Shown here piece after piece: positions 13,174 through 64,000 of a stretch of DNA of 64,000 nt (position 1 is its first letter; each line of letters opens with the position of its first letter). The notes under the pieces were generated by a model. It did no database searches. It had not been told where the DNA came from and saw nothing but the letters and a program-made list of their open reading frames with translations. Source of the DNA: Polyangiaceae bacterium (GTDB taxonomy: Bacteria; Myxococcota_A; Polyangia; Polyangiales; Polyangiaceae); the NCBI GenBank assembly GCA_016712345.1, contig JADJRH010000002.1, positions 392,466 through 456,465 of the forward strand. The letters are read 5' to 3'. The translations under genes were made by a program, and so were the position numbers.

Positions 13174-13377
13174 TCAGGTTTTTTGAGCGTACTTCTTGCG
13201 GAACTTGTCAACGCGGCCCGCTACGTCCATGACCTTGTGTTTGCCGGTGTAAAACGGGTGACATGCCGCGCAGACATCAACTGTGAAGCTCCCGCGAGTG
13301 GAGCGTGTCGTGTAGCTCGTGCCACACGCACAGGTAATGAGGGCGGCTTTGTAATCGGGGTGAATGCCTTGCTTCAT
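13174..13377 (-). CDS. rpmE: 50S ribosomal protein L31.
   Basis: MKQGIHPDY start, the Cys motifs and a 67-aa length. Confidence 0.9.
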
Positions 13378-13752
13378 AGGTGGCGCTCCTCGTGGGGCCG
13401 TCGCTGACCGACCGAAGGGGTCGGCTGACTTAACTCACCTCGTTCGGTTGTGCAAGCGTTTGGATCGAAGCTGGGCCGGCGGCCAAGCAATCTTTTTGCC
13501 ACGGCTTTGCAGACGCGTGTTGACCTGGGCGCGCAGGTGGTTAGTTTCGCCTCCGGTTCGGTCGCTCAGACCAGTTAAAAACGCCACCGAACCAATCGAA
13601 ACTGCGGCGGTTTTGGCCGATACGGCCATGGCGGCCGGGCCGGCGAACCGGGTTCGAACGGGCGTTTCCCGTCCCAGGTCGCGGCAGCCGAACGCCACCG
13701 CCCAACAATCAAAAACTCACAGTCCGCACGCATTCTCAGAGGAGATACCTGT

Positions 13753-15661
13753 CATGGGCAAGATCATCGGCATCGACTTGGGCACGACCAACAGCGTGGT
13801 CGCGGTGATGGAGGGCAAAGAGCCCAAGGTCATCGTGAACGAAGAAGGGGCACGGCTCACCCCGTCGGTGGTTGCGTGGGACGAAAAAGGTGAAGTTTTG
13901 GTTGGCCAAATCGCCAAACGCCAAGCTGTCACCAACCCCACCAACACCGTTTACTCGTCGAAGCGGTTCATCGGCAGGCGCTTTGAAGAAGCTCAAGAAG
14001 AGTCAAAGCGCGTTCCTTACAAAGTAAAAAAGGGCAAGGCCGGCGAACCTGTTTTTGAAGTGCGCGGAAAAGATCTCTCAGCGCCCGAAGTCAGCGCCCG
14101 CGTCCTGATGAAGCTCAAAAAAGCGGCTGAAGACTACCTCGGTGAAAAGGTCACCGACGCCGTGATCACCGTCCCCGCCTACTTCAACGACTCGCAGCGC
14201 CAAGCCACCAAAGACGCCGGTCGCATCGCCGGTCTCGAAGTAAAACGCATTGTGAACGAGCCCACCGCGGCGGCGCTCGCGTACGGCCTCGACAAAAAGA
14301 GTGACGAAGTGATCGCCGTGTACGACTTCGGCGGCGGCACATTCGATATCTCGATCCTCGAAGTGGGCGACAACGTCGTGCAAGTGATCTCGACCAACGG
14401 CGACACCCACCTCGGCGGCGACGACGTTGACCACCTGATCATGGATTGGCTGATTGCCGAGTTCAAAAAAGACACCGGCATGGACGTGTCCAACGACAAG
14501 ATGGTTGTGCAGCGCCTCAAAGACGCTTCTGAACAAGCCAAGATTGAACTTTCAAACGTGCAGGAAACAACCATCAACCTGCCGTTCCTCACCGCCGACG
14601 CTTCCGGTCCCAAACACCTGCAAAAGCAGCTCACACGCGCGCGCCTCGAACAGATGATTCGCCCGCTCGTTGAGCGCTCCATGGAGCCCGTTCAAAAGGC
14701 GCTGCGCGACGCAAAGAAGAGCCCACAACAGATCGATGAAGTGGTGCTCGTCGGCGGCTCCACACGCATTCCGCTCGTTCAAGAAACGGTTAAAAAGTTC
14801 TTTGGCAAAGAGCTGCACAAGGGCGTTAACCCCGACGAGGTTGTCGCGGTCGGCGCCGCGGTTCAGGCCGGCGTTCTCGCGGGCGACGTGAAAGATCTCG
14901 TTCTCCTCGACGTGACGCCTCTGTCGCTCGGTGTTGAAACGCTCGGCGGCGTGACCACTGTCATGATTCAGCGCAACACCACCATTCCCACGCAAAAGAA
15001 AGAGATCTTCTCCACCGCGAGTGACAGCCAACCGTCGGTTGAAATTCACGTCCTTCAAGGTGAACGAACCGAGGCTCGCTATAACCGCACTTTGGGCAAG
15101 TTCCACTTGGAAGGAATCATGCCCGCGCCGCGTGGTGTACCCAAAATTGAAGTCACGTTCGACATCGACGCAAACGGCATCTTGAGTGTACACGCGAAAG
15201 ATACCGCCACCGGCAAAGACCAAAAGATCACCATCACCGCCACCTCGGGGTTGAGTGAGTCCGAAATTCAAAAGATGGTGAAAGAAGCGGCCGATCACGA
15301 AGCGGAAGACAAGCAACGCCGCGACGAGATCGAGAAGCGCAACAAGCTCGACAACCTCTGTTACACAATCGAAAAAGCCATCTCCGAGAACAAAGAAAAG
15401 CTCCCCGCGGGTGATGTGACTTCGCTTGAGGGCATGATCAAAGAAGCTCGCAGCGCGATCGAAAAGCAGGACGCGGCGGCCGTTGAGGAAAACCTCAACA
15501 AGCTCGAAAAAGAAATGCACCGCATCGCGAGTGCCGTGTACGGAGCCGGTGGTCCGGGCGCTCCGGGTGGTCCCGGCGCAGGCCCCGCCGCGGGCGGCGA
15601 GCCCCCCAAGGGCAAGGGCAAGGACGGCGTGATCGACGCCGAGTTCGAAGAGAGCAACTGA
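13753..15661 (+). CDS. dnaK: Molecular chaperone DnaK (Hsp70).
   Basis: [18 protein letters not shown] start, Hsp70 signatures ([18 protein letters not shown]) and an acidic EEVD-like C-terminus. The start at 13753 is chosen over the track ORF 13364. Confidence 0.97.
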
Positions 15662-15699
15662 AGCGCGCGGCGTCCCGCGAGCGTCGACAAACAACAAAG

Positions 15700-15740
15700 C
15701 CCCCGCACCCTTACGGCGGGGGTTTTGCTTTTTTGTGCAA
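15700..15740. terminator. GC hairpin (GCCCCCGC...GCGGGGG) followed by TTTTGCTTTTTT in the convergent gap between dnaK and speA. Probable bidirectional intrinsic terminator.
   Basis: Inverted repeat and T-run seen directly in the sequence. Confidence 0.55.
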
Positions 15741-15780
15741 ACGATTGTTCGGAAAATCGATCCAATCGCTCAGCGATTAT

Positions 15781-17714
15781 TCAGCCAAAACTCAAATACG
15801 TTTGCGCCTTCAATCCGCGCTCGTAATCGGCCAGCAGGCGCATGCCTTCGGTGGGCTTGAGTTTGTCCTGCTTAATGGCTGAATCAACCTGCGCCTTCAC
15901 CTTGGAGATGAGATCGCGCGCATCGTACTGCGTCATCCCGAGCACTTCTTGAATGGTGTGCCCGGCGATCGTCTCTTCGATGTAGTAACCGCTCTCTTCG
16001 TCGTCATCGAGGAACACGTGCACCTCGTTTACGCGACCGAAGAGATTGTGCAGATCGCCCATGATGTCTTGGTAGGCGCCGGTTAAGAAAATGCCCAAAT
16101 AATAAGGCTCGTCGACCTTGATTGTGTGGAGCGGCAACGTGTCGCGCACATCGTTCAGATCGATAAACTTGCTCACCTTGCCGTCGGAATCGCACGTGAT
16201 GTCCACGAGCGTGCTCGCCATGTTCGGTTGCTCATGCAGCCGATGCACAGGCACGATCGGAAAGAGCGCGCCGAGCGCCCAGTGATCAAGCAGCGACTGA
16301 AACACCGAAAAGTTGCAGATGTGTTGATCTGCGAGCTGATTTTTCAGCTCCACAATGTCTTCGGGAACCTCGCTCGGATCGATGTCTTTGGTCAGCCTTT
16401 GCAGCTTCTCCGCGATCTCCCAAAACATCGTTTCAACGCGCGCCTTCACATTCAGATCGAGCACGCCCACGTCAAACATCTTCTGCGCTTCTTCTTTGAT
16501 CTGAAGAAGGTCGTGCCACGTTTCGCTCAGGTTCTGCGTCGTCACGTGGTCGTGAATGTGCTCCAGATCGCGCGTGAGTTTGTGCTGCTCTGTGTGTACC
16601 GGCGCGGGCATGCTCGGCGTTTTTTCAATTGAGCCAAACGCCTCCACAACAAGCACCGAGTGATGCGCCACGATTGCGCGGCCCGACTCGCTCACAATAT
16701 CCGGGTGCGGCACGCGCTCGTCGTCGCAAACGTCGGTGATGTTGTACACAACGTCCCGTGCGTACTCATCGACGGTGTAGTTCATCGACGAGTGAAACGT
16801 GGACCGTGAGCCGTCGTAATCGATCGCAAGGCCGCCGCCCACGTCGAGGTACTCCACCGGATGCCCCATTTTTCGGAGCTTCGCGTAATACCGCGCAGCC
16901 TCCCTCACGGCGCGTTTCACAATGAGAATGTCGGGCACCTGCGAGCCGATGTGAAAGTGAATGAGCTTAAACGCCTGGCTCATCCCCGCATCACGCATGA
17001 TGTCGGTGGCCGTTAAAATTTCCGACGTTGAAAGCCCAAATTTCGCGTGCTCACCGCCGCTCGTGGCCCACTTACCGGCGCCCTTCGTCACGAGCCGAAC
17101 GCGCAGACCGATGTACGGCTCCACGTTCATTTCTTTCGCGATGCGCGTGATCGCCCGCACTTCAGAAAGTTTCTCGGCGATCAAAATCACCTTTTTCCAA
17201 GCTTGCGGCCGATCATCGCGGTGCGAATGAACGTGTCGTCTTTGTAGCCGTTGCACACAATCAAACTTTCGTTGTCAGTGTGTACGCTCAGTCCGGCAAA
17301 GATCTCCGGCTTGGATCCAACCTCCACGCCGAAGTGGTACGGACGCCCCGCATCCAAAATTTCTTCGACCACCTCACGCAGTTGGTTGACCTTGATCGGA
17401 AAGACGCCGCGGTACACACCGCGGTATTTGTTTTCCGAGATCGCGCGATTGAACGCATCGTTCAACGCCCGCACGCGATGGTGCAAAATGTCTTGAAAGC
17501 GAATGAGGAGCGGGTTTCCCAAGCCTCGCTCACGCGCTTCCGCAATCACGTCCATGATGGCGATTCGCTTGCCGCGTTCTTGCAGCGGCGCGATCGTCAT
17601 GTTGCCTTTGTCGTCGACGTCGAAGTATCCGCTCCCCCATCGATCGATGAGGTAAAGCTCCTTCGAATCTTCGGTCGTCCAGCTTTCTTTGTTGGCCACA
17701 CTCGCGTCGTTCAA
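15781..17714 (-). pseudogene. speA: Biosynthetic arginine decarboxylase (SpeA) interrupted by a -1 frameshift in an A5 run (plus-strand T-run 17192-17196). This is either an assembly error or a genuine disruption.
   Basis: The N-terminal 175-aa ORF (17187..17714) ends ...IGRKLGKR*. The C-terminal 491-aa ORF (15781..17256) resumes VILIAEKLSEV... An A6 run would read IGRKLGKKVILIAEKL, which is colinear with E. coli SpeA (IGEKMGHKVYLVIEKM). Confidence 0.85.
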
Positions 17715-17844
17715 TTCAGCGCTCCGTGAAGTCTTTTGTGGAGGTGAAAAACCAATACCCCACGAAAGCTCCGCACCACAATGGCTTGGCGGGCTATAAA
17801 GCCCCCCCGTGAAAGCTCACCGACTGCCCGGTTGGGGCAGCCAA

Positions 17845-18504
17845 ATGCTCACCATCTTTCGCAAAGATCTTGCGATTGAATACGCGACCAAAGAAATTGT
17901 CACAACAAGCGGCTTTTTTGCCGTTCTTGTCGCAACAATCGCTTCCATCGCGTTCACGGGCGGGTCAGACGTAAGGCAGCGCGTTGCGCCGGGGGTGATT
18001 TGGGTGGCTGTTGCGTTTGCCGCAGTATTGGCGCTTTCGCGCGCTTGGCAACGTGAACGCGACGACGGCGCCCTCAACGGCCTATTGGTGAGCCCCATTT
18101 CACGAAGTGCTATTTTTGCCGGCAAAGCCCTTGGATTGAGCGTTTTTCTGCTTGTGATTGAGGCGATTGTCATCCCCGTTGCAGCGGTTTTTTTTGGCAT
18201 TGACCTCATTCAAATGGGGCCCGGACTAATTGTATTCTGCCTGCTTGTAACTCCCGGTCTCGCCGCAAGTGGCACTCTTTTCGGCGCCATGACAGTGCGC
18301 ACGCGGGCCAGGGATCTCGTGCTCGCCGCTGTCATGTTTCCCCTGCTCACTCCCGCTCTCCTCGCCGGTGTCGCTGGAACGCGTGAGTTGTTTTACGGGG
18401 CAACCGTGGCTGAAGTGGGGGACTATTATCAGCTGATAGCGCTGTTTGATTTTCTGTTTTTGGCGGGCGGACTTGGCATGTTTGAGCTGTTAATCGAAGG
18501 ATAA
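17845..18504 (+). CDS. ccmB: Heme exporter protein B (CcmB-family ABC permease). No ccmA or ccmC is adjacent.
   Basis: VAPGVIWVAVAFAAVLALSRAWQRERDDGALNGLLVSP is colinear with the CcmB consensus. Six predicted TM helices. Internal start at MLTIFRKDL. Confidence 0.7.
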   Translation: MLTIFRKDLAIEYATKEIVTTSGFFAVLVATIASIAFTGGSDVRQRVAPGVIWVAVAFAAVLALSRAWQRERDDGALNGLLVSPISRSAIFAGKALGLSVFLLVIEAIVIPVAAVFFGIDLIQMGPGLIVFCLLVTPGLAASGTLFGAMTVRTRARDLVLAAVMFPLLTPALLAGVAGTRELFYGATVAEVGDYYQLIALFDFLFLAGGLGMFELLIEG

Positions 18505-18513
18505 CACCTTTTC

Positions 18514-18565
18514 CAAGGTCTCTTTTTGGGGGCGGGGGCAAGCCCCCGCAACGCCCCCGCGCTAT
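18514..18565. terminator. G/C-rich hairpins (GGGGGCGGGGGC...GCCCCCGC...GCCCCCGCG) in the convergent gap. Possible bidirectional terminator.
   Basis: Inverted GC repeats flanked by T-rich tracts. Confidence 0.3.
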
Positions 18566-18774
18566 TTCTTTCGAGTCTTTTTGGGATTGGATGGTTCATC
18601 GCTGTTCGCCTCGGGAGGCGGCGACTTGGGCATTCGACCGGCATCCATCAACGCCCTGCGCAGCAAAAACTCAAGCTGACCGTTGAGGCTGCGCAGGTCG
18701 TCGTCGGCCCACCGCTGAAGAGCGGCTAGCAGCGCCGGATCGAGGCGGAGGAGAAAAGGTTTCCGCTCAGCCAT
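18562..18774 (-). CDS. Small ribbon-helix-helix (Arc/CopG-like) DNA-binding protein.
   Basis: A 70-aa ORF with FLLRLDPALLAALQRWADDDLRSLNGQLEFLLRRAL (beta-strand plus two helices) and a basic tail. It is immediately downstream of the SPFH gene. Confidence 0.45.
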   Translation of the reverse strand: MAERKPFLLRLDPALLAALQRWADDDLRSLNGQLEFLLRRALMDAGRMPKSPPPEANSDEPSNPKKTRKK

Positions 18775-18811
18775 AAAGCACCTGAAACATGAGAGTTGGC
18801 TCGGAAACCAA

Positions 18812-19771
18812 TTATGAGTAAATGGTGCCAGTGTTGACTACGGGCTGTGCGTTACGTTCGCCGCAAAGCACAACAAGCAGGTTGCTGACCATTTGGGCCT
18901 TTCGCTCTTCATCGAGTTGCACAATTTCGTGTTTGGACAACATCTGAAGAGCCATTTCAACCATGCCTACCGCGCCTTCAACAATGCGTTGACGAGCGGC
19001 GATAATGGCACCGGCTTGTTGCCGTTGAAGCATGGCGTGGGCGATTTCAGGGGCGTACGCCAGATGGCTAATCTGGGCATCTACCACTTCAACACCCGCG
19101 GCGCCGAGAGCGCGATTCAACTCCGCGCACAACTCCTCCACAATGTGATCGGTATGCCCGCGCAACGACGGTTTTGAGTCATCATGGGCGTCATAAGCAT
19201 ACCGCGTCGCCAAATTTCGAAGCGCAGACTCGGCCTGTACAGCAACGTACTTTTCGTAGTTGTCGACTCGAAAACAAGCTTCTGCCGTATCCACAACGCG
19301 CCAAACGACAATGGCGGCAATCTCAATGGGGTTACCCTCAATGTCGTTTACTTTGAGTCTGGCGCTCTCAAAACTCCTCATTTTGAGGGAGATTTTGCGC
19401 TTTGCGAAAAAGGGGTTTGCCCAACGGAGCCCCTCATCGCGGGTTGTGCCTACGTATTTTCCAAAGAGCTGAAGCACCATCCCTTCATTGGGGCCGACAA
19501 CGAAAAAGCCGCCGAGCGCCACAAGAACTCCAATGAACACAAGCACAACGATGACCGCAATGGGCCCTTCTTTAATTGCCTTTGTTGCCACCGCAAATGC
19601 TGGAACGCCGGCGAGCAATGCGAGAAGCATGACCAACATCGCACCACCCGAAGCCGTGGAGTGCCTTTTTTCAATCAGCTCCACCGCCTTGGGGGGGTTA
19701 TTTTTGGCGCGCGCTTCATTGCCGCGTTGGCGGTAAACATCGCGAGACTGGGGACCTGTTGTTTGGCTCAT
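18812..19771 (-). CDS. SPFH / band-7 (stomatin-prohibitin-flotillin) family membrane protein.
   Basis: An N-terminal TM segment is followed by a PHB domain ([22 protein letters not shown]...[13 protein letters not shown]...) and a coiled-coil C-terminus. Confidence 0.8.
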
Positions 19772-19776
19772 GCTTG

Positions 19777-19794
19777 CAAAGTGATATCACTTTG
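19777..19794. promoter_or_regulatory. Perfect 18-bp palindrome CAAAGTGATATCACTTTG in the divergent promoter region between the SPFH gene and the radical-SAM pair. Candidate operator.
   Basis: The dyad symmetry is exact and is read directly from the sequence. Confidence 0.4.
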
Positions 19795-19887
19795 ATGTCT
19801 TGTCAATATCAATTCGGCCGAAACCTCCGCGGCGTCTCCCTTCGCCCATGACGGACCTCTGCGTGTGGTGCTATTCTGCCCGCTTCG

Positions 19888-21687
19888 ATGAAGGCGCTCA
19901 TCAAAGTGGGTTATGCGTGCAATGAAAATTGCACGTTTTGCCACACTCTCGATCTGCGCGAACAAAACGACGATAGCGATCGAGTCGTGTGGAAAATTCG
20001 CCGCGCAAAAGCGCTCGGCTATTCAATGGTGGTGCTTTCCGGCGGCGAACCCACCATTCGCCCTGAGCTGCTCACATGGGCAAAACTGGTGGCGTCCCTC
20101 GGGTTGGACTTTGGCCTTGTCACCAATGGACTGCTGCTTTCTTACCCGCATGTCACAAGCGAATTAATTGAAAACTGCCGCCTTCGTTATGTGTACATGT
20201 CCATTCACGGCGGTGACGCCAAAGTTCATCGCAGCGTTGTCAGGGCAGATACGTTTGACCAGGCGTATCGAGCGCTTGAATTGCTCGCCGGCCGAGTTCC
20301 CGACTTAACGGCCAATTGTGTTGTTACAAATGCCAATTTGCCGCACCTCCGCGCCGTTGTAGAAAAGCTCCTGCCGCTCAAACAACTGGCAATCAAGTTT
20401 TCAATGACGCAGCCCAAAGGGGGCGGAAAACACGCGTTTGACGTGATTGTCCCCGATGTTGAAGAGTGTGCCGCCGCGGTGAAACAAGCCATCTCCCATG
20501 GAGAGATGTTGCGCGGTTCGGAGGAATGGCCCCGATTTGTGCACGACGGCATTCCATTCTGCCTGCTGCCCGGTCTGCATGAAAACTACGACGATCTGAA
20601 AACCCATCAATTTGCCACCATGATCGAAAGTGATGAAGACGACTTCGTCCCGGTCGACGACGTGGCAAAAACCCACCCACCTGAATGTGACGGCTGTTCG
20701 CTGAAAGGCCCCTGTCCCGGCCTCTTTAGAGGCTATTTAGAAAGCCGCGGCGCCTCCGCTCTCAGGCCCGTGCGCCAAAAGCCGCGCTCCAGTTCATTCA
20801 ACTACGTGCCTGAACGCGATATCGCCAGACCCAAAGGAGCGCCGTGCCCCATTAAAACCGACGGCGTTTCTCCCTACGATCGGGCTAGAACACTGTTTGT
20901 GCGCATGTCTGATAGAATGCGGCTCTTTCGCACTTTTTCGCGCGACTTTTCAGACGAAGAAATGCTGCACATTAAAGAGGGAGTGGGTCAGGTCTACCTT
21001 GATATCTCCACAAAAGTGTCCATTGACGACTTTTCAAAAGACCTGCGAAAACTGGTGCTCTCGTCGGAGTGCCGCCGTTGTGAAAAAAGGCCACAATGCA
21101 CCGGTTCTTGGGAGCCTTTAAAAGAAGACCTTTTTACGCGGGACGACCACGCTCTCCGCACGCTTGTTGGTTCACTCACCGGCAGAATCTTGGATCTCGG
21201 GGCGGGGGAGGGGCCTTATCTCGACATTCTTGCCCCCAAAATCGCCTCCGGTGAAGTTGACTATGTGGCGGTTGAGCCCGATGCCGGTCGACTGGAGTTG
21301 ATTTTGGCGCGAGCGCCTAAAGCGCGGGTTTTAAACACAACGGCGGAGCGTTTACCCCCGGACATTGGCACGTTCGACAACGTGCTTTGTCTCCGAGCGT
21401 ACAACCACTTTGCCGATCCACAAAAAGCCCTTGAGCCGGCCATTTTACTCCTGCGCAACAAGGGCTCGCTGATTGTGGCCGACAACATTGCGTTTGGCCT
21501 TTTGAGAACCAAAACACAGGCCAATCGGGCCGAAAACGCGCCCAACAACGTGTTTGAACACTACCGCAACGACGGTGCCGTTGAAGCCGAAAAGGCCCTC
21601 TCCGGTTTTCCACTCAAACTGCGACAAAAAATGGAGACAGGCCCTTTCAGCTCCAATCAATGGCTGCTCTGCTACGACCGAGTGTAA
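19888..21687 (+). CDS. Radical SAM enzyme with a SPASM/twitch-like Cys cluster, fused to a C-terminal class I SAM-dependent methyltransferase domain.
   Basis: CNENCTFC (Cx3Cx2C) at residues 11-18. Glycine-rich SAM site VVLSGGEPT. Later Cys cluster PECDGCSLKGPCPG. The C-terminal part has methyltransferase motif I (ILDLGAGEGPYLD) followed by VAVEPD. Confidence 0.75.
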   Translation: MKALIKVGYACNENCTFCHTLDLREQNDDSDRVVWKIRRAKALGYSMVVLSGGEPTIRPELLTWAKLVASLGLDFGLVTNGLLLSYPHVTSELIENCRLRYVYMSIHGGDAKVHRSVVRADTFDQAYRALELLAGRVPDLTANCVVTNANLPHLRAVVEKLLPLKQLAIKFSMTQPKGGGKHAFDVIVPDVEECAAAVKQAISHGEMLRGSEEWPRFVHDGIPFCLLPGLHENYDDLKTHQFATMIESDEDDFVPVDDVAKTHPPECDGCSLKGPCPGLFRGYLESRGASALRPVRQKPRSSSFNYVPERDIARPKGAPCPIKTDGVSPYDRARTLFVRMSDRMRLFRTFSRDFSDEEMLHIKEGVGQVYLDISTKVSIDDFSKDLRKLVLSSECRRCEKRPQCTGSWEPLKEDLFTRDDHALRTLVGSLTGRILDLGAGEGPYLDILAPKIASGEVDYVAVEPDAGRLELILARAPKARVLNTTAERLPPDIGTFDNVLCLRAYNHFADPQKALEPAILLLRNKGSLIVADNIAFGLLRTKTQANRAENAPNNVFEHYRNDGAVEAEKALSGFPLKLRQKMETGPFSSNQWLLCYDRV

Positions 21688-21703
21688 TGAGGAACCTCCC
21701 CGC

Positions 21704-23443
21704 ATGAATCTACCCATGAAGCCCCAAATCGAAAGCGGACTTGAAACAGGTTTCGCCGACTTTCAAAACGACGCGCTCATGGAGCGCGAGGGGCGAAAAG
21801 ACGAGTCACACGAAGAGGCCGCCCACGAAAAGCGCAATTGGGTACGCCTTTCTTATGACTGCAATAACCACTGCACCTTTTGTCTCGACTCAGATGCTCA
21901 CAACGGGACAATGCGCTCCACACTCGATATCAAAGTTCAAATTATCGAGGGGCGAAAACGCGGTGCGGAAAGGCTTATTTTGTCGGGTGGGGAGCCCACA
22001 ATGCACCCCAACTTTCTCGACTTTGTAAAGCTCGGAAACCGGGCCGGCTACCGCAAAGTTCAAACGGTCACCAATGGCCGCATGTTTAAATATCCCGAGT
22101 TTTTAAACCGCGCCGCCGACAACGGCCTCAACGAAATCACGTTTAGTTTGCATGGCCACACTGCCAAGCTTCACGACGCGCTTGTGGGTACACCGGGCGC
22201 TTTTGTCGAAGAGACAGCCGGCCTAAAAGCCGCGCTCGCGTCGGGTAGGTTTATCGTCAACGTTGATATTGTCATCAACAAACAAAACGTAAAACACCTG
22301 CCTGAAATGCTCGAAACGTTTATCGGCTGGGGCGTCAAAGAGTTTGATTTGTTGCACGTCATCCCATTTGGAAACGCGTGGACACAAGCGCGCGATCATC
22401 TCTTTTATGACTTGGACGGCAACCTTGAATACCTGCAAAAAGCCTTTTCGTACGCGCGGCGCCCCGATATCCACATTTGGCTCAATCGGTTTCCACCCGC
22501 GTACGCAGAAGGTTTTGAAGACCTCATTCAGGATCCCTACAAACTCAACGATGAAGTTCGCGGCCGACGTGAAGAGTTTGATCGCTACTTGGCGTTTGGC
22601 CAAAAGCTCCAGTGTCGCGAGCCTGACAGGTGCAAACGTTGTTATTTGCAGCCTCTCTGTGATGGACTTGATGTGGCGCTGGAGGCGCGTCGCGCGTCGT
22701 CGGTGGATGCACTTCGCGTGACTCAAGTGTTGCCGGCGGCGGTGACATTGCCTGCCGCACCCGTCGCAGAGTTGATTGCGGAGCATTTGTCAGGTGCCGA
22801 GGAGTTGGCGAAATACATCACAACACCTGCGTTGGCCCTTGAACTCCGCTCGTACAAAGGCCTTTCAGAAGCGCTTGGGCCGAGTACAAACCTTTTTGGG
22901 AAACCCCTCTCGTATTGCATTGCCCAAGATTTGAATGCGGCCAGAGCGCTACTCGCTGTCAATGGCACGTTTGACATTCACCTCATGCTGACCAAAGAAA
23001 CGGCGCCGTTTATTGAGGCTCATCCTGAGCTGTCAAATCGCGTCGTGCTTGTTCAACCCAACTACGATCGCGTTACCGACGCTCTCGCGAACGACGTGGA
23101 TCTTCCAACGTTCCTTGCCCAATTGAGCACGTCATTCAGGCTTCAAAACGTGCCCGCCTGTTTGGCCAAACACCACACCGCATTGCCCGACCTCCGCGTT
23201 CTCGACGTGGCCATGCTTGGGCCCGACGGGCGCGTGGACATGAAAGGGTACACTCGCCGCTTCGTGGAAGACGGCTTCTACTCAAAAGCTCTTCGATGTG
23301 GGGGATGTTCTCAAAACGCGAGTTGCCGTGGTGTACACGTCAACTGGGTGCGCGCGCACTCGTTTGCACCTCTAGTACCGCGATTCAATCAACCCGATGG
23401 GTTGATTGCCGCTGCTTCGCAGCGCTTGAAATCGCGGTACTAG
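21704..23443 (+). CDS. Second radical SAM / SPASM-like enzyme, paralogous to the upstream gene, with a C-terminal domain of unknown function that carries an extra CGGCSQNASC cluster.
   Basis: CNNHCTFC motif, LILSGGEPT, and CREPDRCKRCYLQPLCDG. The start at MNLPMKPQ has a GAGGAA RBS. It is 16 bp downstream of the preceding stop. Confidence 0.7.
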   Translation: MNLPMKPQIESGLETGFADFQNDALMEREGRKDESHEEAAHEKRNWVRLSYDCNNHCTFCLDSDAHNGTMRSTLDIKVQIIEGRKRGAERLILSGGEPTMHPNFLDFVKLGNRAGYRKVQTVTNGRMFKYPEFLNRAADNGLNEITFSLHGHTAKLHDALVGTPGAFVEETAGLKAALASGRFIVNVDIVINKQNVKHLPEMLETFIGWGVKEFDLLHVIPFGNAWTQARDHLFYDLDGNLEYLQKAFSYARRPDIHIWLNRFPPAYAEGFEDLIQDPYKLNDEVRGRREEFDRYLAFGQKLQCREPDRCKRCYLQPLCDGLDVALEARRASSVDALRVTQVLPAAVTLPAAPVAELIAEHLSGAEELAKYITTPALALELRSYKGLSEALGPSTNLFGKPLSYCIAQDLNAARALLAVNGTFDIHLMLTKETAPFIEAHPELSNRVVLVQPNYDRVTDALANDVDLPTFLAQLSTSFRLQNVPACLAKHHTALPDLRVLDVAMLGPDGRVDMKGYTRRFVEDGFYSKALRCGGCSQNASCRGVHVNWVRAHSFAPLVPRFNQPDGLIAAASQRLKSRY

Positions 23444-23579
23444 TTTTGTTTCCGTGGGGCATTCGCCCCACACCCCGGCCGCGCAGGCGCGGCCCCAGTG
23501 CACCGCGTGGATAAGGCAACGAAGCGTTGCTGTGATTCATCAGGACACATCAGTTCTACGGAATCGGTGCACTGCCACC

Positions 23580-24264
23580 CTATTGAACAGTGCCGATCTT
23601 GCAGTCTGAAACAGCGCCTGCGTACCAGTCGGTCACGTTATTCCAGCCTTCACCTTCATGCCATCGGACATCGGCGCGCGGCATTTTTCCTTCGACCGCG
23701 AATTTACACTTCACTGAAAAACGACTGCCCGGAAGTTTGTCGGCGGCGAGGGCTGGTTCTGCCCAAACACCGGCCGCAAAGAAGTTGATGTTGTTTGTTG
23801 TGGAGTAAGGCCTGAGCGTTTTCTTGTCGTCGGCCGGGTCACCCTTTGACCATCGCTTGCCCTGCGACTCAAAACCGCAGTGAAGCCCTTTGATCTCGGT
23901 TCCCGACGCGCATGCGAGATCTTGCCGATCGGTGGAGACGAGCGTGATTTCAACGTCCACCGTTTGCCCCTCGTTCCACTTGGGAGCCGCGGGACCGCCG
24001 CCGCCGCGTTCAGCACCGAGAAGCAACATGGCGAGCGACAAACCACCAACCACAGTGATGAACAAAGCCACCGCTTTGCCAAGGCCGGCCGTGGGAGGCG
24101 GGGGCACTTTTGCGGCTTGTTTTGCAGCGACGGGCGCAGGTTTTGTCTCTTTTGCGGGTGCGGCGTCTTCATCGGACTTCGAAGCTTCCGGTTCGTCGGA
24201 TTCGCCTTCGCCTTCGCCGCCGTTTTCGTCAAGGTCGCGATCTTTGTCGTTGTCTTCAGAAGCC
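23580..24264 (-). CDS. Hypothetical membrane-anchored protein with an acidic disordered N-terminus and a Cys-containing extracytoplasmic domain.
   Basis: MASEDNDKDRD... acidic N-terminus, then a TM segment (LFITVVGGLSLAMLLLGA), then a domain with 4 Cys. Confidence 0.4.
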
Positions 24265-24368
24265 ATGTTGCGGCGACCATACCCGAGAGTTTGCCCGCCG
24301 CCAAACAAGCTTTAACGCCTTGTTTTACCCGTGTGTGAAAGCGCTCCGGTGATAAGCTGCGCGGTCTT

Positions 24369-25370
24369 ATGTACCGGATGGTCATCGAACCTCGCACGCG
24401 GATCTTGGGCACCGGCCACTATGTGCCAGCCCATATTGTTGAAAACGCCGAGTTGGAAAGGGAGCTTTCAACAACGGGTGAGTGGATCGAAAAGCACACA
24501 GGTATCCGTCGAAGGCGCATTGCAGCCGAGGGCGAAGTCACAAGTGACATGGCAACGGCGGCGAGTCGGCTCGCGATTGAAGCGGCCGGACTCACGGTGG
24601 CCGACCTCGACATGATCATCGTGGCCACAGTGAGCGGTGACAGTCCCATGCCCGCCACCGCAGTCCATTTGCAGCAAAAGCTCGGGGCCGACCTCATTCC
24701 GTCGTTTGATTTAAATGCGAGCTTTGCAGGCTTTCTCTACGCAATGACCGTCGCCGACCAATTCATCGCGGCCGGAACATACAAGACCATTTTGGTTGTC
24801 GGTGCCGATCTGATGTCTCGCCGGATCGACCCACTCGACAGAACAACGAGGCCCTTTTTTGGTGACGGCGCCGGCGCTGTGGTGCTCGGACCGGCGCAGG
24901 GCGATGGGCGCGGCATTCTCTCGTCAAAAATTCACGCCGACGGCACTCTCGCGCACTTAATCGGAATCCCCGGCGGCGGATCTGCCGAGCCAATGACGGC
25001 CGAGCGTTTTGCGAACAAACGTCACGCGCTCAAAATGGATGGGCACGAACTGCTTCAGATCACGGTGAAACATCTCACCAGCTATTCAATGCAGGCGCTC
25101 AAAGCGGCGGGCCTCACAAGCGCCGAGTTGGACTGGGTTGTTCCCCACCAAGCCAACGCAAACATCGTTGAAAAAATCTCCGCACGCCTCGGGTTTTCGC
25201 GCTCAAAATTCGTGGAAAATATAGCTGAATACGGCAACACCTCCGCTGCATCAATCCCGATCGCTCTCGACGAAGCGGTTCGCGACGGCCGCATCAAACC
25301 TCATCAAACGGTACTCTTGTGTGCACTCGGCGCAGGCCTCACATGGGGCGCGTCTATCGTGCGCATGTAG
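24369..25370 (+). CDS. fabH: 3-oxoacyl-ACP synthase III (KAS III).
   Basis: ILGTGHYVP N-terminus, an active-site Cys in an AGFLYAM context, HQANANI, and GNTSAASIP. Confidence 0.9.
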   Translation: MYRMVIEPRTRILGTGHYVPAHIVENAELERELSTTGEWIEKHTGIRRRRIAAEGEVTSDMATAASRLAIEAAGLTVADLDMIIVATVSGDSPMPATAVHLQQKLGADLIPSFDLNASFAGFLYAMTVADQFIAAGTYKTILVVGADLMSRRIDPLDRTTRPFFGDGAGAVVLGPAQGDGRGILSSKIHADGTLAHLIGIPGGGSAEPMTAERFANKRHALKMDGHELLQITVKHLTSYSMQALKAAGLTSAELDWVVPHQANANIVEKISARLGFSRSKFVENIAEYGNTSAASIPIALDEAVRDGRIKPHQTVLLCALGAGLTWGASIVRM

Positions 25371-25437
25371 CTCGGCAAACGAGCGCGCTCGATTGCCTGC
25401 TTGGGCCGACAACCTTTCACGATCTCTTGGCGACACG

Positions 25438-25962
25438 ATGACATCGTCTGAACGCATCGAGTTGGTGAGCCCTTCGCTGAGGTTCAAACACATGTTTTCG
25501 GAGGAGCGTTTGGCGATCGCCATCGCTCTCGGAAGCCGCGCTCAGGCGATCGAACACATTGGAAGCACCGCGATCGAGGGCATCGTGGCCAAGCCGATTG
25601 TCGATATTTTGGTGGGAATGCGCGACGCGCTGAACACCGCGATCGAACCGCTGACGAGCAGCGGCTATGTGTACTCATTCGATCCCGAACAGCAGGATCG
25701 CCTGGTGTTTTGGAAAGGTGTACCCCGAACCTTCCACGTCCATGTCACGCAGTTCGACGGGCCCGAATGGCGTCGTCACATCGTGTTTCGCGACTGGCTC
25801 AATCTGCATTCCGACGTGGCAAAAGAATACGAAGCTCTCAAGCAGGATCTCGCGCGCCGTTTCGAAGGCGACCGCGCAGCGTACACAAACGGCAAAACGG
25901 AGTTCTGCCACCGCATTGAACGCGAAGCCGCAAAGTTCCCAGCGCTGCGACTGCTCCGCTGA
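25438..25962 (+). CDS. GrpB-family (UPF0157) protein.
   Basis: HIGSTAIEGIVAKPIVDIL and FHVHV motifs typical of GrpB. Confidence 0.7.
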   Translation: MTSSERIELVSPSLRFKHMFSEERLAIAIALGSRAQAIEHIGSTAIEGIVAKPIVDILVGMRDALNTAIEPLTSSGYVYSFDPEQQDRLVFWKGVPRTFHVHVTQFDGPEWRRHIVFRDWLNLHSDVAKEYEALKQDLARRFEGDRAAYTNGKTEFCHRIEREAAKFPALRLLR

Positions 25963-25995
25963 GCCCACGGCCGCGGCGTTACGCTTGTGTACACA

Positions 25996-26766
25996 TTACT
26001 GCAAAACGATGCGACGGCTCGCTTGGTAAGCGCGTTCAGCGGGCAGACCATACCCTTCAAGTGCGGGAACGATCACTTCGCGAACGGTTGCAAAAAACAA
26101 CTTCCTCGCCTCGCCGCCGTCGCAGACGCCCACATCTTCAGCACCTTCGGGAAGCGGCCCCAACACCGGCAGGTGCGCCAACTCGTGAGCTTCAAGATGA
26201 GCAAATGCCAGGGCAAGATACTTGCCGAGGCGCTCTTTGGCGGCCGCATCCCACGACCCCGCGTGTTGCGCGACCAGCGCCCAACCAAACCGGCTGTGCC
26301 CCACTTCATCTGAATAAATTCGGGTGAGCAGTGCTCGCAGCTCGCCCTCCGGCATCCGCAGCCGCTCCGCTCCAATGAGTGCCACCGCCACCGATTCACT
26401 CAAACACGAGATCGAAAGTACGTTGCGCATCACGGCTTCGATCCGGCTCACGTCTTCGTGTTCGGGCAGATCATGTTCCACTCGCGGCGGTGCCACAGCT
26501 TCACCGCCGAACGCTTCCACAACCGCGCCGCACAAAACGCCGTGATGTTTTTCTTCGGCCGCAAACTCCGACGCCTGCTGCACGAGACTGCTCTCAAACC
26601 CGGCCAAAGCCATTTGTCTTGCGAGCTGGTCAAACACCCGCGACGAGCCGTGTTCGTTGATCATGCGCCCGCGCCACGTTGCGATCGCGCGGGCCCGCAC
26701 GGGTTCACTCACATTCACGTGAGGCATGACGGCACGCGCATCCGCCCTTAGATCCAAGAGGTTCAT
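25996..26766 (-). CDS. Ferritin-like-domain protein (putative di-iron four-helix bundle) of unknown function.
   Basis: Paired E...H helices (EEKHHG...; SDEVGHSRFGW; EAHELAH). Its start is coupled to the upstream gene by an ATGA overlap. Confidence 0.45.
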   Translation of the reverse strand: MNLLDLRADARAVMPHVNVSEPVRARAIATWRGRMINEHGSSRVFDQLARQMALAGFESSLVQQASEFAAEEKHHGVLCGAVVEAFGGEAVAPPRVEHDLPEHEDVSRIEAVMRNVLSISCLSESVAVALIGAERLRMPEGELRALLTRIYSDEVGHSRFGWALVAQHAGSWDAAAKERLGKYLALAFAHLEAHELAHLPVLGPLPEGAEDVGVCDGGEARKLFFATVREVIVPALEGYGLPAERAYQASRRIVLQ

Positions 26767-27278
26767 GCGATCCCCCATGTTTCGTCGTTGAACATCGGCG
26801 CCATGGCGGGAGGCATGGGCGGACCCCAAGGTGTACACGCTGGGTGTACACTGAAGTCGTTGACGACAAGCCCGGTGCCACAGCAAGCGTTCACACTCTC
26901 AAACGTGAACGGAGGCTCCGTCGTTCCGTCGCCCATCCAGTTATCCATGGTGCCCACCGCCATTTCGCAACACCCCTTTTGATCTGCGGTGGCGAGGGCC
27001 GGATTGTTCCACAGCGCGTTCGTTGCGAACGCTTCGTCGAGCACTGCCGAGCAGCACGCGGCGTCGTTGCCTTCACCGTCGAAACACGCCGTGTCGGGTG
27101 TTGGATTGTCGACCGTTACGTCGGGGGTGTCCGCGGGGTCGACCTCGCCCGGCTCGGGAACGTTTTCAGTGTCGTCGGCCTCGATGATGACCTGACCGGT
27201 GCAGCCCGCGGCACTCGCGATCATTGTCAATCGGGCAACCGCGGCCATGGCCCGCCGTGAGAGTTCGTTGGCACGCAT
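26763..27278 (-). CDS. Small Cys-rich lipoprotein of unknown function.
   Basis: Lipobox (IASAAGC) and 12 Cys including CC pairs (AACCSA, GCCEMA, ACCGTG). Confidence 0.45.
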   Translation of the reverse strand: MRANELSRRAMAAVARLTMIASAAGCTGQVIIEADDTENVPEPGEVDPADTPDVTVDNPTPDTACFDGEGNDAACCSAVLDEAFATNALWNNPALATADQKGCCEMAVGTMDNWMGDGTTEPPFTFESVNACCGTGLVVNDFSVHPACTPWGPPMPPAMAPMFNDETWGIA

Positions 27279-35728: not shown

Positions 35729-35815
35729 ATATGTGCACAAATGAGTACACGCATGTGTACGCATAAGAGTGCGAGAATGAGTACGCGAATGAGTACGCGA
35801 ATGAGTACACAAATG
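35729..35815. repeat. About 7 tandem copies of a 12-bp unit AATGAGTAC(G/A)C(G/A), intergenic and upstream of tRNA-Ala.
   Basis: AATGAGTACACGC / ATGTGTACGCAT / AAGAGTGCGAG / AATGAGTACGCG x2 / AATGAGTACACA / AATGAGTACGCA, read directly. Confidence 0.6.
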
Positions 35816-35921
35816 AGTACGCACACGCCTCCCGCAGAAGCCCAAAACGGCCTTATCTCCAGGCTGAAAAAAAGTTCTCGACAAGGTGCACATCGAGCTG
35901 TATAACGCCGTTCCTTCTTTT

Positions 35922-59838: not shown

Positions 59839-60507
59839 CTATCGGGGGGGCATGCCGCCGGGGGGACCGTAGCCCTGGGGAGGTTGGCCGTACCCTTGTT
59901 GGGGGTTCTGACCATACCCTTGTTGAGGTGCTTGGCCGTAACCTTGTTGAGGCGCCTGACCATACCCTTGTTGAGGGTTTTGACCATACCCCTGCTGGGG
60001 TGCTCCCTGTTGCATTTGACCGGGGGCCGCGTACGCCGCGTGCATGGGTTGACCCTGGTGGGGTGCACCGTACGGGTTGAGTTGACCTGCCGGGTATTGT
60101 CCACCGCCCATTTGACCCCGAAGGAAGGGGCTTTGCTCCAGGTAAGATCGAAACTCGCCGAGAAGCGGTTTCCACGCGTTATAGTAGGCAATCAAGAGAG
60201 GAATAAGCCCCATGGCCATGAGCCGCACAAGGACAGACGGGGCGAACGGGTTAAACCGGATCACCGTTGACTGCGGGGAGTGGAGGATCTTGATAGCAAT
60301 GCCTGTCCATGCGCTCTTCTTGAGAACCAGATCGGCGCCGATGAGGGCTGTTTTATACACCTCAAAACCGCGGGGCCCCCAGGCGGCCTGAAGGTCTTGC
60401 AGCAGTGTGTCAGGGGTGATGTGTGGGCTGGGCGGCAATGTGCATGTGCCGCGCGACCAGAATCCGGCGTCATTGATTTGCATGGTGCACAAGCCCTTAC
60501 GCACCAA
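59839..60507 (-). CDS. Hypothetical protein with a Q/G/Y-rich low-complexity C-terminus (about 6x PQQGYGQA). The N-terminal domain contains a TM segment.
   Basis: Tandem 24-bp DNA repeats at about 59880-60010 encode GYGQ(A/N)PQQ units. The start is possibly MQIND at about 60483. Confidence 0.5.
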
Positions 60508-61565: not shown

Positions 61566-64000
61566 ATGCGAACGTCGCACAATTGGATTTGGCTTTTCTT
61601 GTTGGCTCCAGCCCTCACCGCATCGTGTGTGGACACTCCACCTGTTGATGACGAAGACGAAGAGATCGGGCAGGGGTTTGGAGCGTCAAGCTCGTGCAAT
61701 TATACTCCCGGGCCGGATGTGTTAGACGGCGTAGTGACCGGTGCGGGAACGGGATCGTCGGCCGGCTCGGGTTCAGGCTCGGGCTCCGGCTCGGGTTCAG
61801 GCTCCGGTTCCGGTTCCGGCACCGCCTACAAAGCCGACGCGTACGTGAACCGGATGATTGCCACATCCAGCGGCAACCGTCAGACAGTGGCCAATTCACA
61901 TCTGCTTGTCACTCGCAACTGCGCCGACATGTTGGCTGAAGTGACTTCTGTAAATGGGTACCTTGGCGCGGCGCAATCAGCGGTTTCGGCAGCGGGTGGA
62001 ACAGTCACGGACGTGATCGCGGCCGAAAACAAGTTCAACGCGTGGATTCCTTACGGCTCGCTCGCAACGGTGCGCAACAACTCCTCGGTGGCGCGAGTGG
62101 GTAGACCCGTCACCGTCACACTCCACAACAGCACGGTTCTTACCGGCACTGCCACCCAAGATTGGCACAATGTCAATGCGCGAGGTGCAGGCGCGCGCGT
62201 TGGGATTATCGATGGTGGGTTTCAAGGTCTGGCGGCCGCGTTTGGCGGAACCGTGCCGGCCACCATTACCGGGTCGAGTTTTGTGGACAACGACACAGCA
62301 TGGCAAGCTTCTACCACCCATGGAACCGCGTGTACTCAAATTGTCAATTACATGGCCCCAGATGCCAACTACTTTTTGGCGCGGGTCAACACAGTGGCCG
62401 ATGCACTTCAGGCAATGGACTGGTTTGTCCAACAAGATGTGGACGTGGTAAGTTCATCCATCGGCTTTTCCGGCGCGGCGCCGCTCGATGGCACGGGTAG
62501 ATTGGCAACCCGCATTCAAGAGTTAAGAAATGCCGGCATTTTGTGGGTGAACGCCGCCGGAAATCAACGGCAAGCCCACGTGAGTGGCAACTTCGCCGAC
62601 GGTGACAGCAACCGCTATGTTGATATCAACGGGGCCGACGGTTTTGGTGTGAGCGGTAATGGTACACAACTGGCGGTGGTAAGGTCAGGTCAAGTGTTTG
62701 ACGCCGTGTTGCAGTGGAACCAGTGGACCAGCCCCAACCGCGATTTTCGGCTGGTGCTCCAGGCATTGCCCGTAGCGCAGAATCAACAGGGGCAGTGGGT
62801 GGCCACAGGATCATGGTCAGACGTGACCGATCTGAACGATCCTCAGTCAGGTCAGGCAACCCATCGTCCCGTGGAGCGAATTACCTTTACGGCAACGTTG
62901 GATGCCGCGGCTTATCGATTTCTAATCCAATCCCCTGAAAATGTGGCTGCGACCGACCTGGCAAATTTCCACTTTGACCTCACCATGTTGCGGCCCAATG
63001 CCCGCCTGCTCAACGGCAACACCAATCAAACCATTCCATACCCCGGCGACGCCGATGCAGCGTTTACCGTGGGTGCTGTGCGATTTGATACAAACAACCT
63101 TGAAGATTACAGCGGTGAGGGGCCCACCAAAGGTGCGGGAGGAATCGCCGCCGGAGGAATCAACAAACCGGACATTTCGGGGTATGCGGGTATTCCGCTC
63201 AGCCCCCACTACACAACTGCCTTCAGCGGAACTTCGGCCGCTACTCCCCATGTGGCTGCCGCGGTCGCGTTGATGAGGGCCGAACGGCCAAACCTGACAG
63301 TGGATGAAATTGAAACGCGCCTCCGAGCGAGAGCGGTTGACGTGGGCGCCGTCGGCAGCGACCTGCGCTCGGGAGCCGGTCGTTTACACATGGGTATTCC
63401 CGTCAACTCGGCGGCGCTCACAACCCTGCCAACGTATGGCAACGTGGACGGTGTATACTCCCTCACCGCGTCCATTGGACCAAGCAACGCGCGACCCAAC
63501 TTTTTATACACGTGGACGGCCACAGATCTGACGGTCACCTCCGTCAGCAACAATCAACTGTCCAACGCCCAGTCGTTTTTCTGGTCTTCGACCGGAACAA
63601 AATCGGTGACCGTGGCGGTGGATAACTTAGAACCTCAACCGCGCGTCGCTACACGCAGCATTCAGATTCAGTCCTTGAATGCCGCTGCACCGGTCATTAC
63701 AGAATTGGACTGTGATCCATCCCGCCCCGGCCTTGAAAAACAGGTGTCGATCACGGTTACCGGCACCGCGGCGCAGAGTAAATACATGATTCGGTGGTCA
63801 ACCGATTTGGTCAAGTGGCATGTGGCCAAACAAGGTATTGTGGGGCAAGATCAACAAATCACGTGGACGGAGTGCGGAGGTGGGCCCGGACACAACTACA
63901 TGCTCAACCCGTACATGTACTTTAGTGTTCGATTGGACGACGATCCTGACAACGACGGTTTGGGCACCGGGTTTGAACGCAACTACCTCAACTCCAATCC
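61566..64000 (+). CDS. S8-family subtilisin-like serine peptidase with a lipoprotein signal and a Gly-Ser linker, 5'-partial at the window edge. It is not in the ORF track because it has no in-window stop.
   Basis: I translated frame 0 from the ATG at 61566 to 63990 and found no stop. Signal LFLLAPALTASC. An (SG)n repeat. Catalytic motifs VGIIDGGF (Asp), HGTACTQIV (His) and GTSAATPHVAAAVALM (Ser). Confidence 0.85.
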   Translation, partial: MRTSHNWIWLFLLAPALTASCVDTPPVDDEDEEIGQGFGASSSCNYTPGPDVLDGVVTGAGTGSSAGSGSGSGSGSGSGSGSGSGTAYKADAYVNRMIATSSGNRQTVANSHLLVTRNCADMLAEVTSVNGYLGAAQSAVSAAGGTVTDVIAAENKFNAWIPYGSLATVRNNSSVARVGRPVTVTLHNSTVLTGTATQDWHNVNARGAGARVGIIDGGFQGLAAAFGGTVPATITGSSFVDNDTAWQASTTHGTACTQIVNYMAPDANYFLARVNTVADALQAMDWFVQQDVDVVSSSIGFSGAAPLDGTGRLATRIQELRNAGILWVNAAGNQRQAHVSGNFADGDSNRYVDINGADGFGVSGNGTQLAVVRSGQVFDAVLQWNQWTSPNRDFRLVLQALPVAQNQQGQWVATGSWSDVTDLNDPQSGQATHRPVERITFTATLDAAAYRFLIQSPENVAATDLANFHFDLTMLRPNARLLNGNTNQTIPYPGDADAAFTVGAVRFDTNNLEDYSGEGPTKGAGGIAAGGINKPDISGYAGIPLSPHYTTAFSGTSAATPHVAAAVALMRAERPNLTVDEIETRLRARAVDVGAVGSDLRSGAGRLHMGIPVNSAALTTLPTYGNVDGVYSLTASIGPSNARPNFLYTWTATDLTVTSVSNNQLSNAQSFFWSSTGTKSVTVAVDNLEPQPRVATRSIQIQSLNAAAPVITELDCDPSRPGLEKQVSITVTGTAAQSKYMIRWSTDLVKWHVAKQGIVGQDQQITWTECGGGPGHNYMLNPYMYFSVRLDDDPDNDGLGTGFERNYLNSN

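Follow-up and report, generated by a model that had tools for sequence, protein, structure and literature searches.

Tandem radical SAM genes of a Polyangiaceae bacterium as candidate HxsC4-type paralogs, next to a palindrome that most likely belongs to an SPFH-RHH operon

Two adjacent genes, here called A and B, were analyzed in a stretch of 64,000 nucleotides from a Polyangiaceae bacterium (GenBank assembly GCA_016712345.1, contig JADJRH010000002.1, positions 392,466 to 456,465), referred to below as the window; coordinates are those of the window unless stated otherwise. Both genes encode radical S-adenosylmethionine (SAM) proteins, and an exact 18-bp palindrome separates them from a divergent pair of genes for an SPFH/Band 7 membrane protein and a small RHH-like protein. 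Gene A (19888–21687, plus strand) encodes 599 residues, comprising an HxsC4-like radical SAM module (residues 1 to ~295), an insert domain (~296–410) that holds a second CX2CX5C motif and a class I SAM methyltransferase (~425–599). In Pfam, the Radical_SAM domain (PF04055) covered residues 6–146 with 69.9 bits (cutoff 29.5), and Methyltransf_11 covered residues 430–548 with 38.2 bits (cutoff 21.2). In line with the class I assignment, which an earlier, sequence-only reading of the locus (the first-pass annotation) had already made, the latter domain also contains (D/E)xGxGxG as motif I and adopts a Rossmann-like fold. A deposited protein identical to the product of gene A is annotated as ‘radical SAM protein’ only.

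Gene B (21704–23443, plus strand) lies within a longer open reading frame (21554–23443, plus strand) and encodes 579 residues: a conserved N-terminal peptide (residues 1–44), an HxsC4-like radical SAM module (~45–325) and a C-terminal domain of ~255 residues. The start was placed at the ATG at 21704 because orthologs share the N-terminus ETGFADFQNDALMER and a GAGGA Shine-Dalgarno site, read directly from the sequence at 21689–21693 (plus strand), stands in front of it; the deposited annotation begins 25 codons further on (P0121). This site falls in the 16-nt gap behind the stop codon of gene A, and the close spacing marks A and B as a two-gene operon. The Radical_SAM score of B was 62.7 bits, above the gathering threshold, and both proteins show the core fold of the superfamily, a partial TIM barrel. 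The C-terminal domain of B matched no family in Pfam or NCBIfam and carries C486 and C532-x2-C535-x5-C541, so that the cysteine cluster noticed there at first sight was confirmed. An HxsD-like or RRE-like identity was considered for this domain and for the middle domain of A, and was rejected when hhalign gave a probability of 0.1% against an 18-member HxsD alignment.

The two proteins were 25% identical over 308 residues in BLASTP (E 1e-16), and alignments of their orthologs matched in hhalign with 99.6% probability over residues 3 to ~290 of A. The paralogy proposed for the tandem pair is thus real. Among 30 orthologs of A and 26 of B, each protein has 11 invariant cysteines arranged 3+4+4. 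The first three are those of the radical SAM motif (C11/C15/C18 in A; C53/C57/C60 in B, 579-residue numbering); the others are C225, C267, C270, C276, C320, C395, C398 and C404 in A, and C304, C310, C313, C319, C486, C532, C535 and C541 in B. This pattern suggests up to three Fe-S clusters per protein, namely the radical SAM cluster and two auxiliary ones. Beyond the HxsC4-like module, A has a domain of ~115 residues and B one of ~210 residues, each ending in the second CX2CX5C copy; in A, the methyltransferase comes after that copy. The cluster motifs themselves, C11-N-E-N-C15-T-F-C18 in A and CNNHCTFC in B, had been regarded as unusual. They are, however, canonical CX3CX2C motifs that include an aromatic residue, and HxsC4 has such a motif as well.

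The best NCBIfam families for both proteins were HxsC4 (NF038332) and HxsC (TIGR03977). A scored 104.3 bits against the HxsC4 cutoff of 500 and 57.6 against the HxsC cutoff of 267.9; the corresponding values for B were 113.8 and 92.9. A bona fide HxsC4 from Enhygromyxa (593.9 bits vs. the cutoff of 500) was 25–26% identical to A and B (E 6e-23 and 1e-28, respectively), so that A, B and HxsC4 are mutually ~25% identical. Both alignments span the full length of HxsC4, including its terminal ECKQCKYDPVCEG motif; in A, the region aligned with this motif also matches the HxsC and HxsC4 profiles at their C-terminal ends. Shared with HxsC4 are the cluster motif CNxxC(T/V)FC (CNNNCTFC/CVFC in HxsC4), a GGEPT motif and the terminal CX2CX5C. 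In contrast, A and B are 240–250 residues longer and have an extra domain and a duplicated cysteine motif, to which A adds the methyltransferase fusion. In domain layout and gene context, A and B resemble HxsC-type peptide maturases, but neither fell into a characterised family. With scores far below all curated family cutoffs, they are best regarded as two new families related to HxsC4.

Their description as SPASM/twitch-like held in part. Like the SPASM/twitch maturases (PqqE, anSME, SkfB; TIGR04085), both proteins combine a radical SAM core with additional conserved cysteines, a CX2CX5C element, which occurs twice in each, and an expected peptide substrate. Unlike them, the two cysteine motifs stand 120–210 residues apart and there is no single compact SPASM domain. 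The seven-cysteine SPASM pattern, CX9-15GX4C...CX2CX5CX3C...C, was found in neither protein, the CX3C being absent; Pfam SPASM (PF13186) gave no match in A or B, and TIGR04085 scored 19.7 bits in A and 11.7 bits in B against a cutoff of 27, over profile positions 45–72 only. Membership in this family was consequently rejected.

In a genome scan, full-length orthologs of A, methyltransferase included, came up at 80 loci with 49–76% identity. All of them were from Myxococcota, mostly from the class Polyangia (Polyangiaceae, Nannocystaceae, Enhygromyxa, Paraliomyxa and Sandaracinaceae). B adjoins A in 34 of the 80, in tandem in Polyangiaceae and convergently or upstream elsewhere. Neighbourhoods were analyzed over 8 kb around A by GC-frame-aware calling of open reading frames and clustering. 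His-Xaa-Ser (Hxs) system genes were present within this distance in 33 of the 80 loci, five of which (L023, L056, L068, L079 and L080) contain A, B and Hxs genes together. The identities of the neighbours were confirmed in NCBIfam: HxsB (576.8 bits vs. a cutoff of 370), HxsD (67.9 vs. 50), the HxsD-like HxsD_rel (76.1 vs. 41), HxsA4 (69 vs. 55), HxsC4 (593.9 vs. 500) and an aKG-HExxH peptide hydroxylase (79.7 vs. 40). HxsD follows A on the same strand in 18 loci, with a gap of at most 340 nt in 13 of these (median 177 nt). In Enhygromyxa and Nannocystaceae, A is the first gene of the series A-HxsD-(HxsD-like)-HxsB-HxsA4-HxsC4.

The HxsA4 precursors have 79–238 residues; behind a leader (...LPxF...ISDxA...), they continue as AQHCS(HGS)nW, where n ranges between 7 and ~60. 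Such HGS repeats are mentioned by none of the papers in the literature collection that was searched. Further HxsC-like radical SAM families of ~343, 311, 535 and 770 residues are also present, the ~770-residue one with two radical SAM domains. Neighbourhoods unusually rich in radical SAM genes, with HxsB and HxsC4 besides these families, were seen at L047, L055, L064 and L067 (Enhygromyxa), L201 (C. crocatus) and L203 (P. aurulentum). Such type-4 neighbourhoods also hold the aKG-HExxH hydroxylase, a ~190-residue protein with an apparent twin-arginine (RRQAL) signal and MopE-type metal-binding repeat proteins.

Because A lies within 8 kb of type-4 Hxs genes in 33 of the 80 loci, an HxsA4 peptide is a likely substrate. 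The first-pass annotation had seen no precursor gene, which is true of the window; HxsA4 is nevertheless a concrete candidate, since A orthologs adjoin the (HGS)n gene in many relatives. We interpret A and B as diverged HxsC4-type paralogs that would probably act on an HxsA4-type substrate, with the palindrome as a separate element of the SPFH-RHH genes, and assign this reading a probability of about 0.6. A and B would then serve as tailoring enzymes alongside HxsB and HxsD. Their precursor, a leader plus AQHCS(HGS)nW, would be encoded elsewhere in this genome, as it is in P. aurulentum, and the chemistry would be radical cross-linking or oxidation, together with methyl (C1) transfer by A.

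Several observations weigh against this reading. The scores of A and B are far below the HxsC and HxsC4 cutoffs, and the association between A and Hxs genes is correlative. HxsA, HxsB and HxsD were absent from the 64-kb window in tblastn, and A and B stand next to no Hxs gene there or in most Polyangiaceae. In this family, the pair is unlinked from Hxs and has its own conserved synteny with a 240-residue membrane protein and FabH. Both proteins are also highly conserved, with up to 78% identity, as would be expected just as well of housekeeping enzymes that have nothing to do with Hxs. In six frames of the whole window, neither an (H.S)x4 repeat nor a period-9 tandem array of that kind was found. 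A precursor gene beside the pair was likewise discarded as a candidate, as a small open reading frame would fit neither into the 16-nt gap between A and B nor into the flanking intergenic regions of 116 and 136 nt.

An Hxs core is still present in genomes whose A-B tandem is unlinked from it. In P. aurulentum, the A and B genes have a 4-nt overlap, and the 240-residue protein and FabH come after them as they do in the window. They lie at 11.02–11.04 Mb, 7.4 Mb from the Hxs core at 3.59–3.61 Mb, which consists of a radical SAM gene, HxsD, a gene for an 80-residue protein, HxsB and HxsA4. In C. crocatus, the Hxs core is at 0.39 Mb, and the A ortholog, CMC5_060110 (P0032), was taken to be far from it, judged from the locus-tag number alone. 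Both cores are located between grx-clpB and rplU-rpmA, and HxsB is 70–79% identical among the best 120 matches, of which the named ones are all from Polyangiaceae; because of this shared context and identity, the core looks vertically inherited. The radical SAM neighbours of the two cores scored 66–118 bits, below the HxsC and HxsC4 cutoffs and about as high as A and B. As no core neighbour reaches either cutoff, the HxsC-type function of Polyangiaceae may be spread over diverged paralogs, including the distal A and B.

In the window, the gene convergent to B (23580–24308, minus strand) encodes a 242-residue protein without a family; its N-terminus is acidic, a single membrane helix is predicted, and the C-terminal domain contains cysteine. 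The convergent arrangement with B recurs at 14 Polyangiaceae loci and in P. aurulentum and is probably plain synteny.

The strongest competitor of the HxsC4-type interpretation is that A and B are enzymes independent of Hxs, acting on a small molecule, a lipid, a cofactor or another protein in a conserved core function of Polyangia, with their adjacency to Hxs genes a mere reflection of common descent from HxsC4. This would account for a pair megabases away from the Hxs core, for its stable synteny with FabH and the membrane protein and for its conservation at 50–78%. It would also fit with BlsE, a small-molecule decarboxylase, as the best of B's solved relatives, and with the resemblance of the methyltransferase domain of A to small-molecule methyltransferases. 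However, the similarity to BlsE and PqqE is limited to the generic radical SAM core, and the FabH synteny is confined to 9 of the 80 loci, on which ground a lipid role deduced from the FabH neighbour was rejected. Further, the 33 loci with Hxs genes beside A are distributed over several families, A often being the first gene ahead of HxsD, and the five loci in which A, B and Hxs genes remain together are rearranged ones. On balance, we regard an Hxs-independent role as unlikely, though the most credible of the alternatives.

The Hxs system known from experiments is the HXS system of E. coli, a four-gene anti-phage system (HxsD-HxsB-HxsC-HxsA) in which HxsC binds HxsD (Li et al., Nat Commun 2026, PMC13128918). 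HxsA is matured by HxsB, HxsC and HxsD through N-terminal processing and a shift of +8 Da (+C/-4H) in an SHRSS motif, and the matured HxS-repeat effector blocks phage DNA entry (PMC13128918). In both settings, radical SAM enzymes and a small HxsD are associated with a His-Xaa-Ser repeat protein. The fusion of a methyltransferase in A is mechanistically suggestive because the only known Hxs modification adds one carbon: +C/-4H needs a one-carbon unit, which would fit a methyltransferase-fused paralog. Tying the fusion to this one-carbon addition is speculation by analogy.

That A and B together with the type-4 Hxs core form an anti-phage defence like that of E. coli is suggested by this precedent, in which HxsA–HxsD were shown experimentally to protect and the radical SAM enzymes mature the repeat effector (PMC13128918). 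The myxobacterial genes, known from sequence alone, differ in precursor, gene content and genomic setting. HxsA4 has a short leader and 7 to ~60 HGS repeats and lacks a peptidoglycan-binding domain. As many as six or seven families of radical SAM proteins occur in the type-4 neighbourhoods, along with the aKG-HExxH hydroxylase and other genes. The type-4 system also has a core-genome location, and the retention of the Hxs core in one context in two Polyangiaceae genomes, with HxsB 70–79% identical, looks vertical rather than like a mobile defence island. In addition, 99.7% of HXS systems are reported from Pseudomonadota, with the four-gene layout (PMC13128918). None of the four HXS anti-phage genes is present in the window, and PADLOC returned generic viperin-like radical SAM matches only. 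A defence role thus seems quite improbable.

In a more specific version of the HxsC4-type interpretation, A and B would be undescribed members of a vertically inherited type-4 Hxs pathway, rich in radical SAM enzymes and equipped with the aKG-HExxH hydroxylase. Its product, made from a poly-(His-Gly-Ser) precursor, would be heavily cross-linked and decorated with C1 units. The extra carbon of +C/-4H would come from the methyltransferase of A, and the role would be a core one, for example in metal binding or at the envelope, instead of phage defence. We offer it as a tentative scheme that is doubtful in its full extent.

The palindrome was examined separately. The first-pass annotation had reported CAAAGTGATATCACTTTG (19777–19794) as a perfect 18-bp palindrome, and it is exact and unique in the window; no other copy was found within two mismatches, and none would be expected by chance, as estimated from shuffled sequences. 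It lies within the 116 bp that separate the divergent genes, at a distance of 93 nt from the ATG of A. On the opposite strand, a TTGACA box resembling a -35 element (19801–19806, minus strand), with a putative promoter role, lies 6 nt upstream of it, and the ATG of the SPFH gene lies 5 nt downstream. The SPFH/Band 7 gene (18812–19771, minus strand; Pfam Band_7, 89.6 bits) aligns with its counterparts in L001 and L002, the two closest genomes. The RHH-like gene (18562–18774, minus strand; 70 residues) is downstream of it, in a co-transcribed arrangement, and showed a weak RHH_5 match (E 0.0015), below the cutoff. A terminator scan lists the palindrome as a terminator-like hairpin, yet its position is at the 5' end of SPFH.

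Both closest genomes keep the palindrome, exactly in L001 and with one mismatch in L002, directly before SPFH and 1.4 kb upstream of A. There, the SPFH-RHH genes are co-oriented with A; in the window, the block is inverted. The block with the palindrome spans 18562–19806 in the window, 6511–7808 in L001 and 6618–7874 in L002. When the 400 nt upstream of A were inspected at 79 loci, no palindrome was found at the 77 other than L001 and L002, where the best match had at least 7 mismatches. Nor did an alignment with L001 and L002 show a conserved promoter directly upstream of A. Scans for sigma-70 promoters and terminators near A and B were at chance level, and Rfam gave no RNA element in window positions 15000–27000.

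An exact-match scan of metagenome contigs for the palindrome returned at least 120 matching stretches, of which 80 loci (L081–L160) were examined; the counts that follow apply to the matches listed. An SPFH homolog was present in 34 of the 80 contigs (35–80% identity over aligned segments), with the palindrome 5' of it in 28 of the 34 and the RHH gene also present in 26 of the 34; A or B was found in none of the 80. The window, L001, L002 and the metagenome contigs have the layout TTGAC-N6-10-(CTAT)CAAAGTGATATCACTTTG(ATAG) in common. Examples of the element are found at L150 (5350), L139 (704), L153 (810), L145 (3766) and L090 (3777). In six contigs, it stands between RHH and a membrane protein gene (~95–110 residues; MNAPNDNTAPKGLRGWW...PWEYRHL...), and the same small membrane protein gene comes after the palindrome in most high-GC contigs without SPFH. 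Between the palindrome and this gene, a 5' leader that contains the hairpin CCGGAGTGGCCGG is conserved; Rfam had no match in eight palindrome-bearing contigs. Together, the palindrome and the small membrane protein genes may represent a small regulon of RHH, distributed over many contigs from soil metagenomes.

These results indicate that the palindrome is most likely an operator or promoter element of the SPFH-RHH operon and not of A-B. The RHH protein is probably the binder, a reasonable candidate because its gene shares a transcription unit with SPFH and is found together with the palindrome. As in autoregulated operons of Arc/CopG-type RHH repressors, a small RHH-like gene stands behind a perfect palindrome between TTGACA and a start codon, a layout conserved here in many contigs. 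The likeness is limited by an RHH assignment that is a sub-threshold Pfam match, by binding that is predicted only and by the partner, which is an SPFH/Band 7 protein here, with a membrane protein of ~100 residues taking this place in other contigs. The palindrome had first been explained as the operator of a dedicated dimeric regulator of a stand-alone radical SAM pair with a cryptic substrate. Its proximity to A and the adjacency of SPFH-RHH to A in the three closest genomes, with read-through into A-B conceivable in L001 and L002, would fit such a regulator, but this explanation is largely refuted and very improbable, given a region directly upstream of A that is not conserved, a palindrome missing at 77 orthologous loci, which that annotation had itself named as evidence against it, and an element that in metagenomes accompanies SPFH-RHH or the small membrane protein gene and never A or B. 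Within this small clade, the palindrome may have a local influence on A, which would not be a conserved property of the radical SAM genes.

Elsewhere in the window, an arginine decarboxylase gene (speA; 15781–17714, minus strand) is split by a frameshift at ~17190–17196, beside a T5 run. Compared with the intact ortholog in L002, residues 1–175 are in frame -3 and residues 174–643 in frame -2, which reflects either an assembly error of the metagenome-assembled genome or a pseudogene. The open reading frame listed for DnaK/HSP70 (13364–15661, plus strand) has an extension of 133 residues before the HSP70 domain, probably as the calling rule picks too early a start codon. Tandem repeats were found at 35740–35822 (12 nt, 6.9 copies), 59884–59991 (24 nt, 4.5 copies) and 61762–61824 (6 nt, 10.5 copies).

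The radical SAM chemistry of Hxs systems on His-Xaa-Ser repeats is unsolved, the E. coli system being known by its +8 Da shift only. The variant of Polyangia offers a simpler, highly repetitive (HGS)n substrate and a larger enzyme set. Among these enzymes are A, in which nature has joined an HxsC-like radical SAM module to a methyltransferase, and its paralog B, with a family-less domain. The palindrome, in turn, marks a widely conserved regulatory module that would belong to SPFH-RHH. For two orphan families annotated as generic radical SAM proteins, the link to HxsA4 provides a testable substrate, and the core Hxs clusters of Polyangiaceae may depend on distal paralogs such as these.

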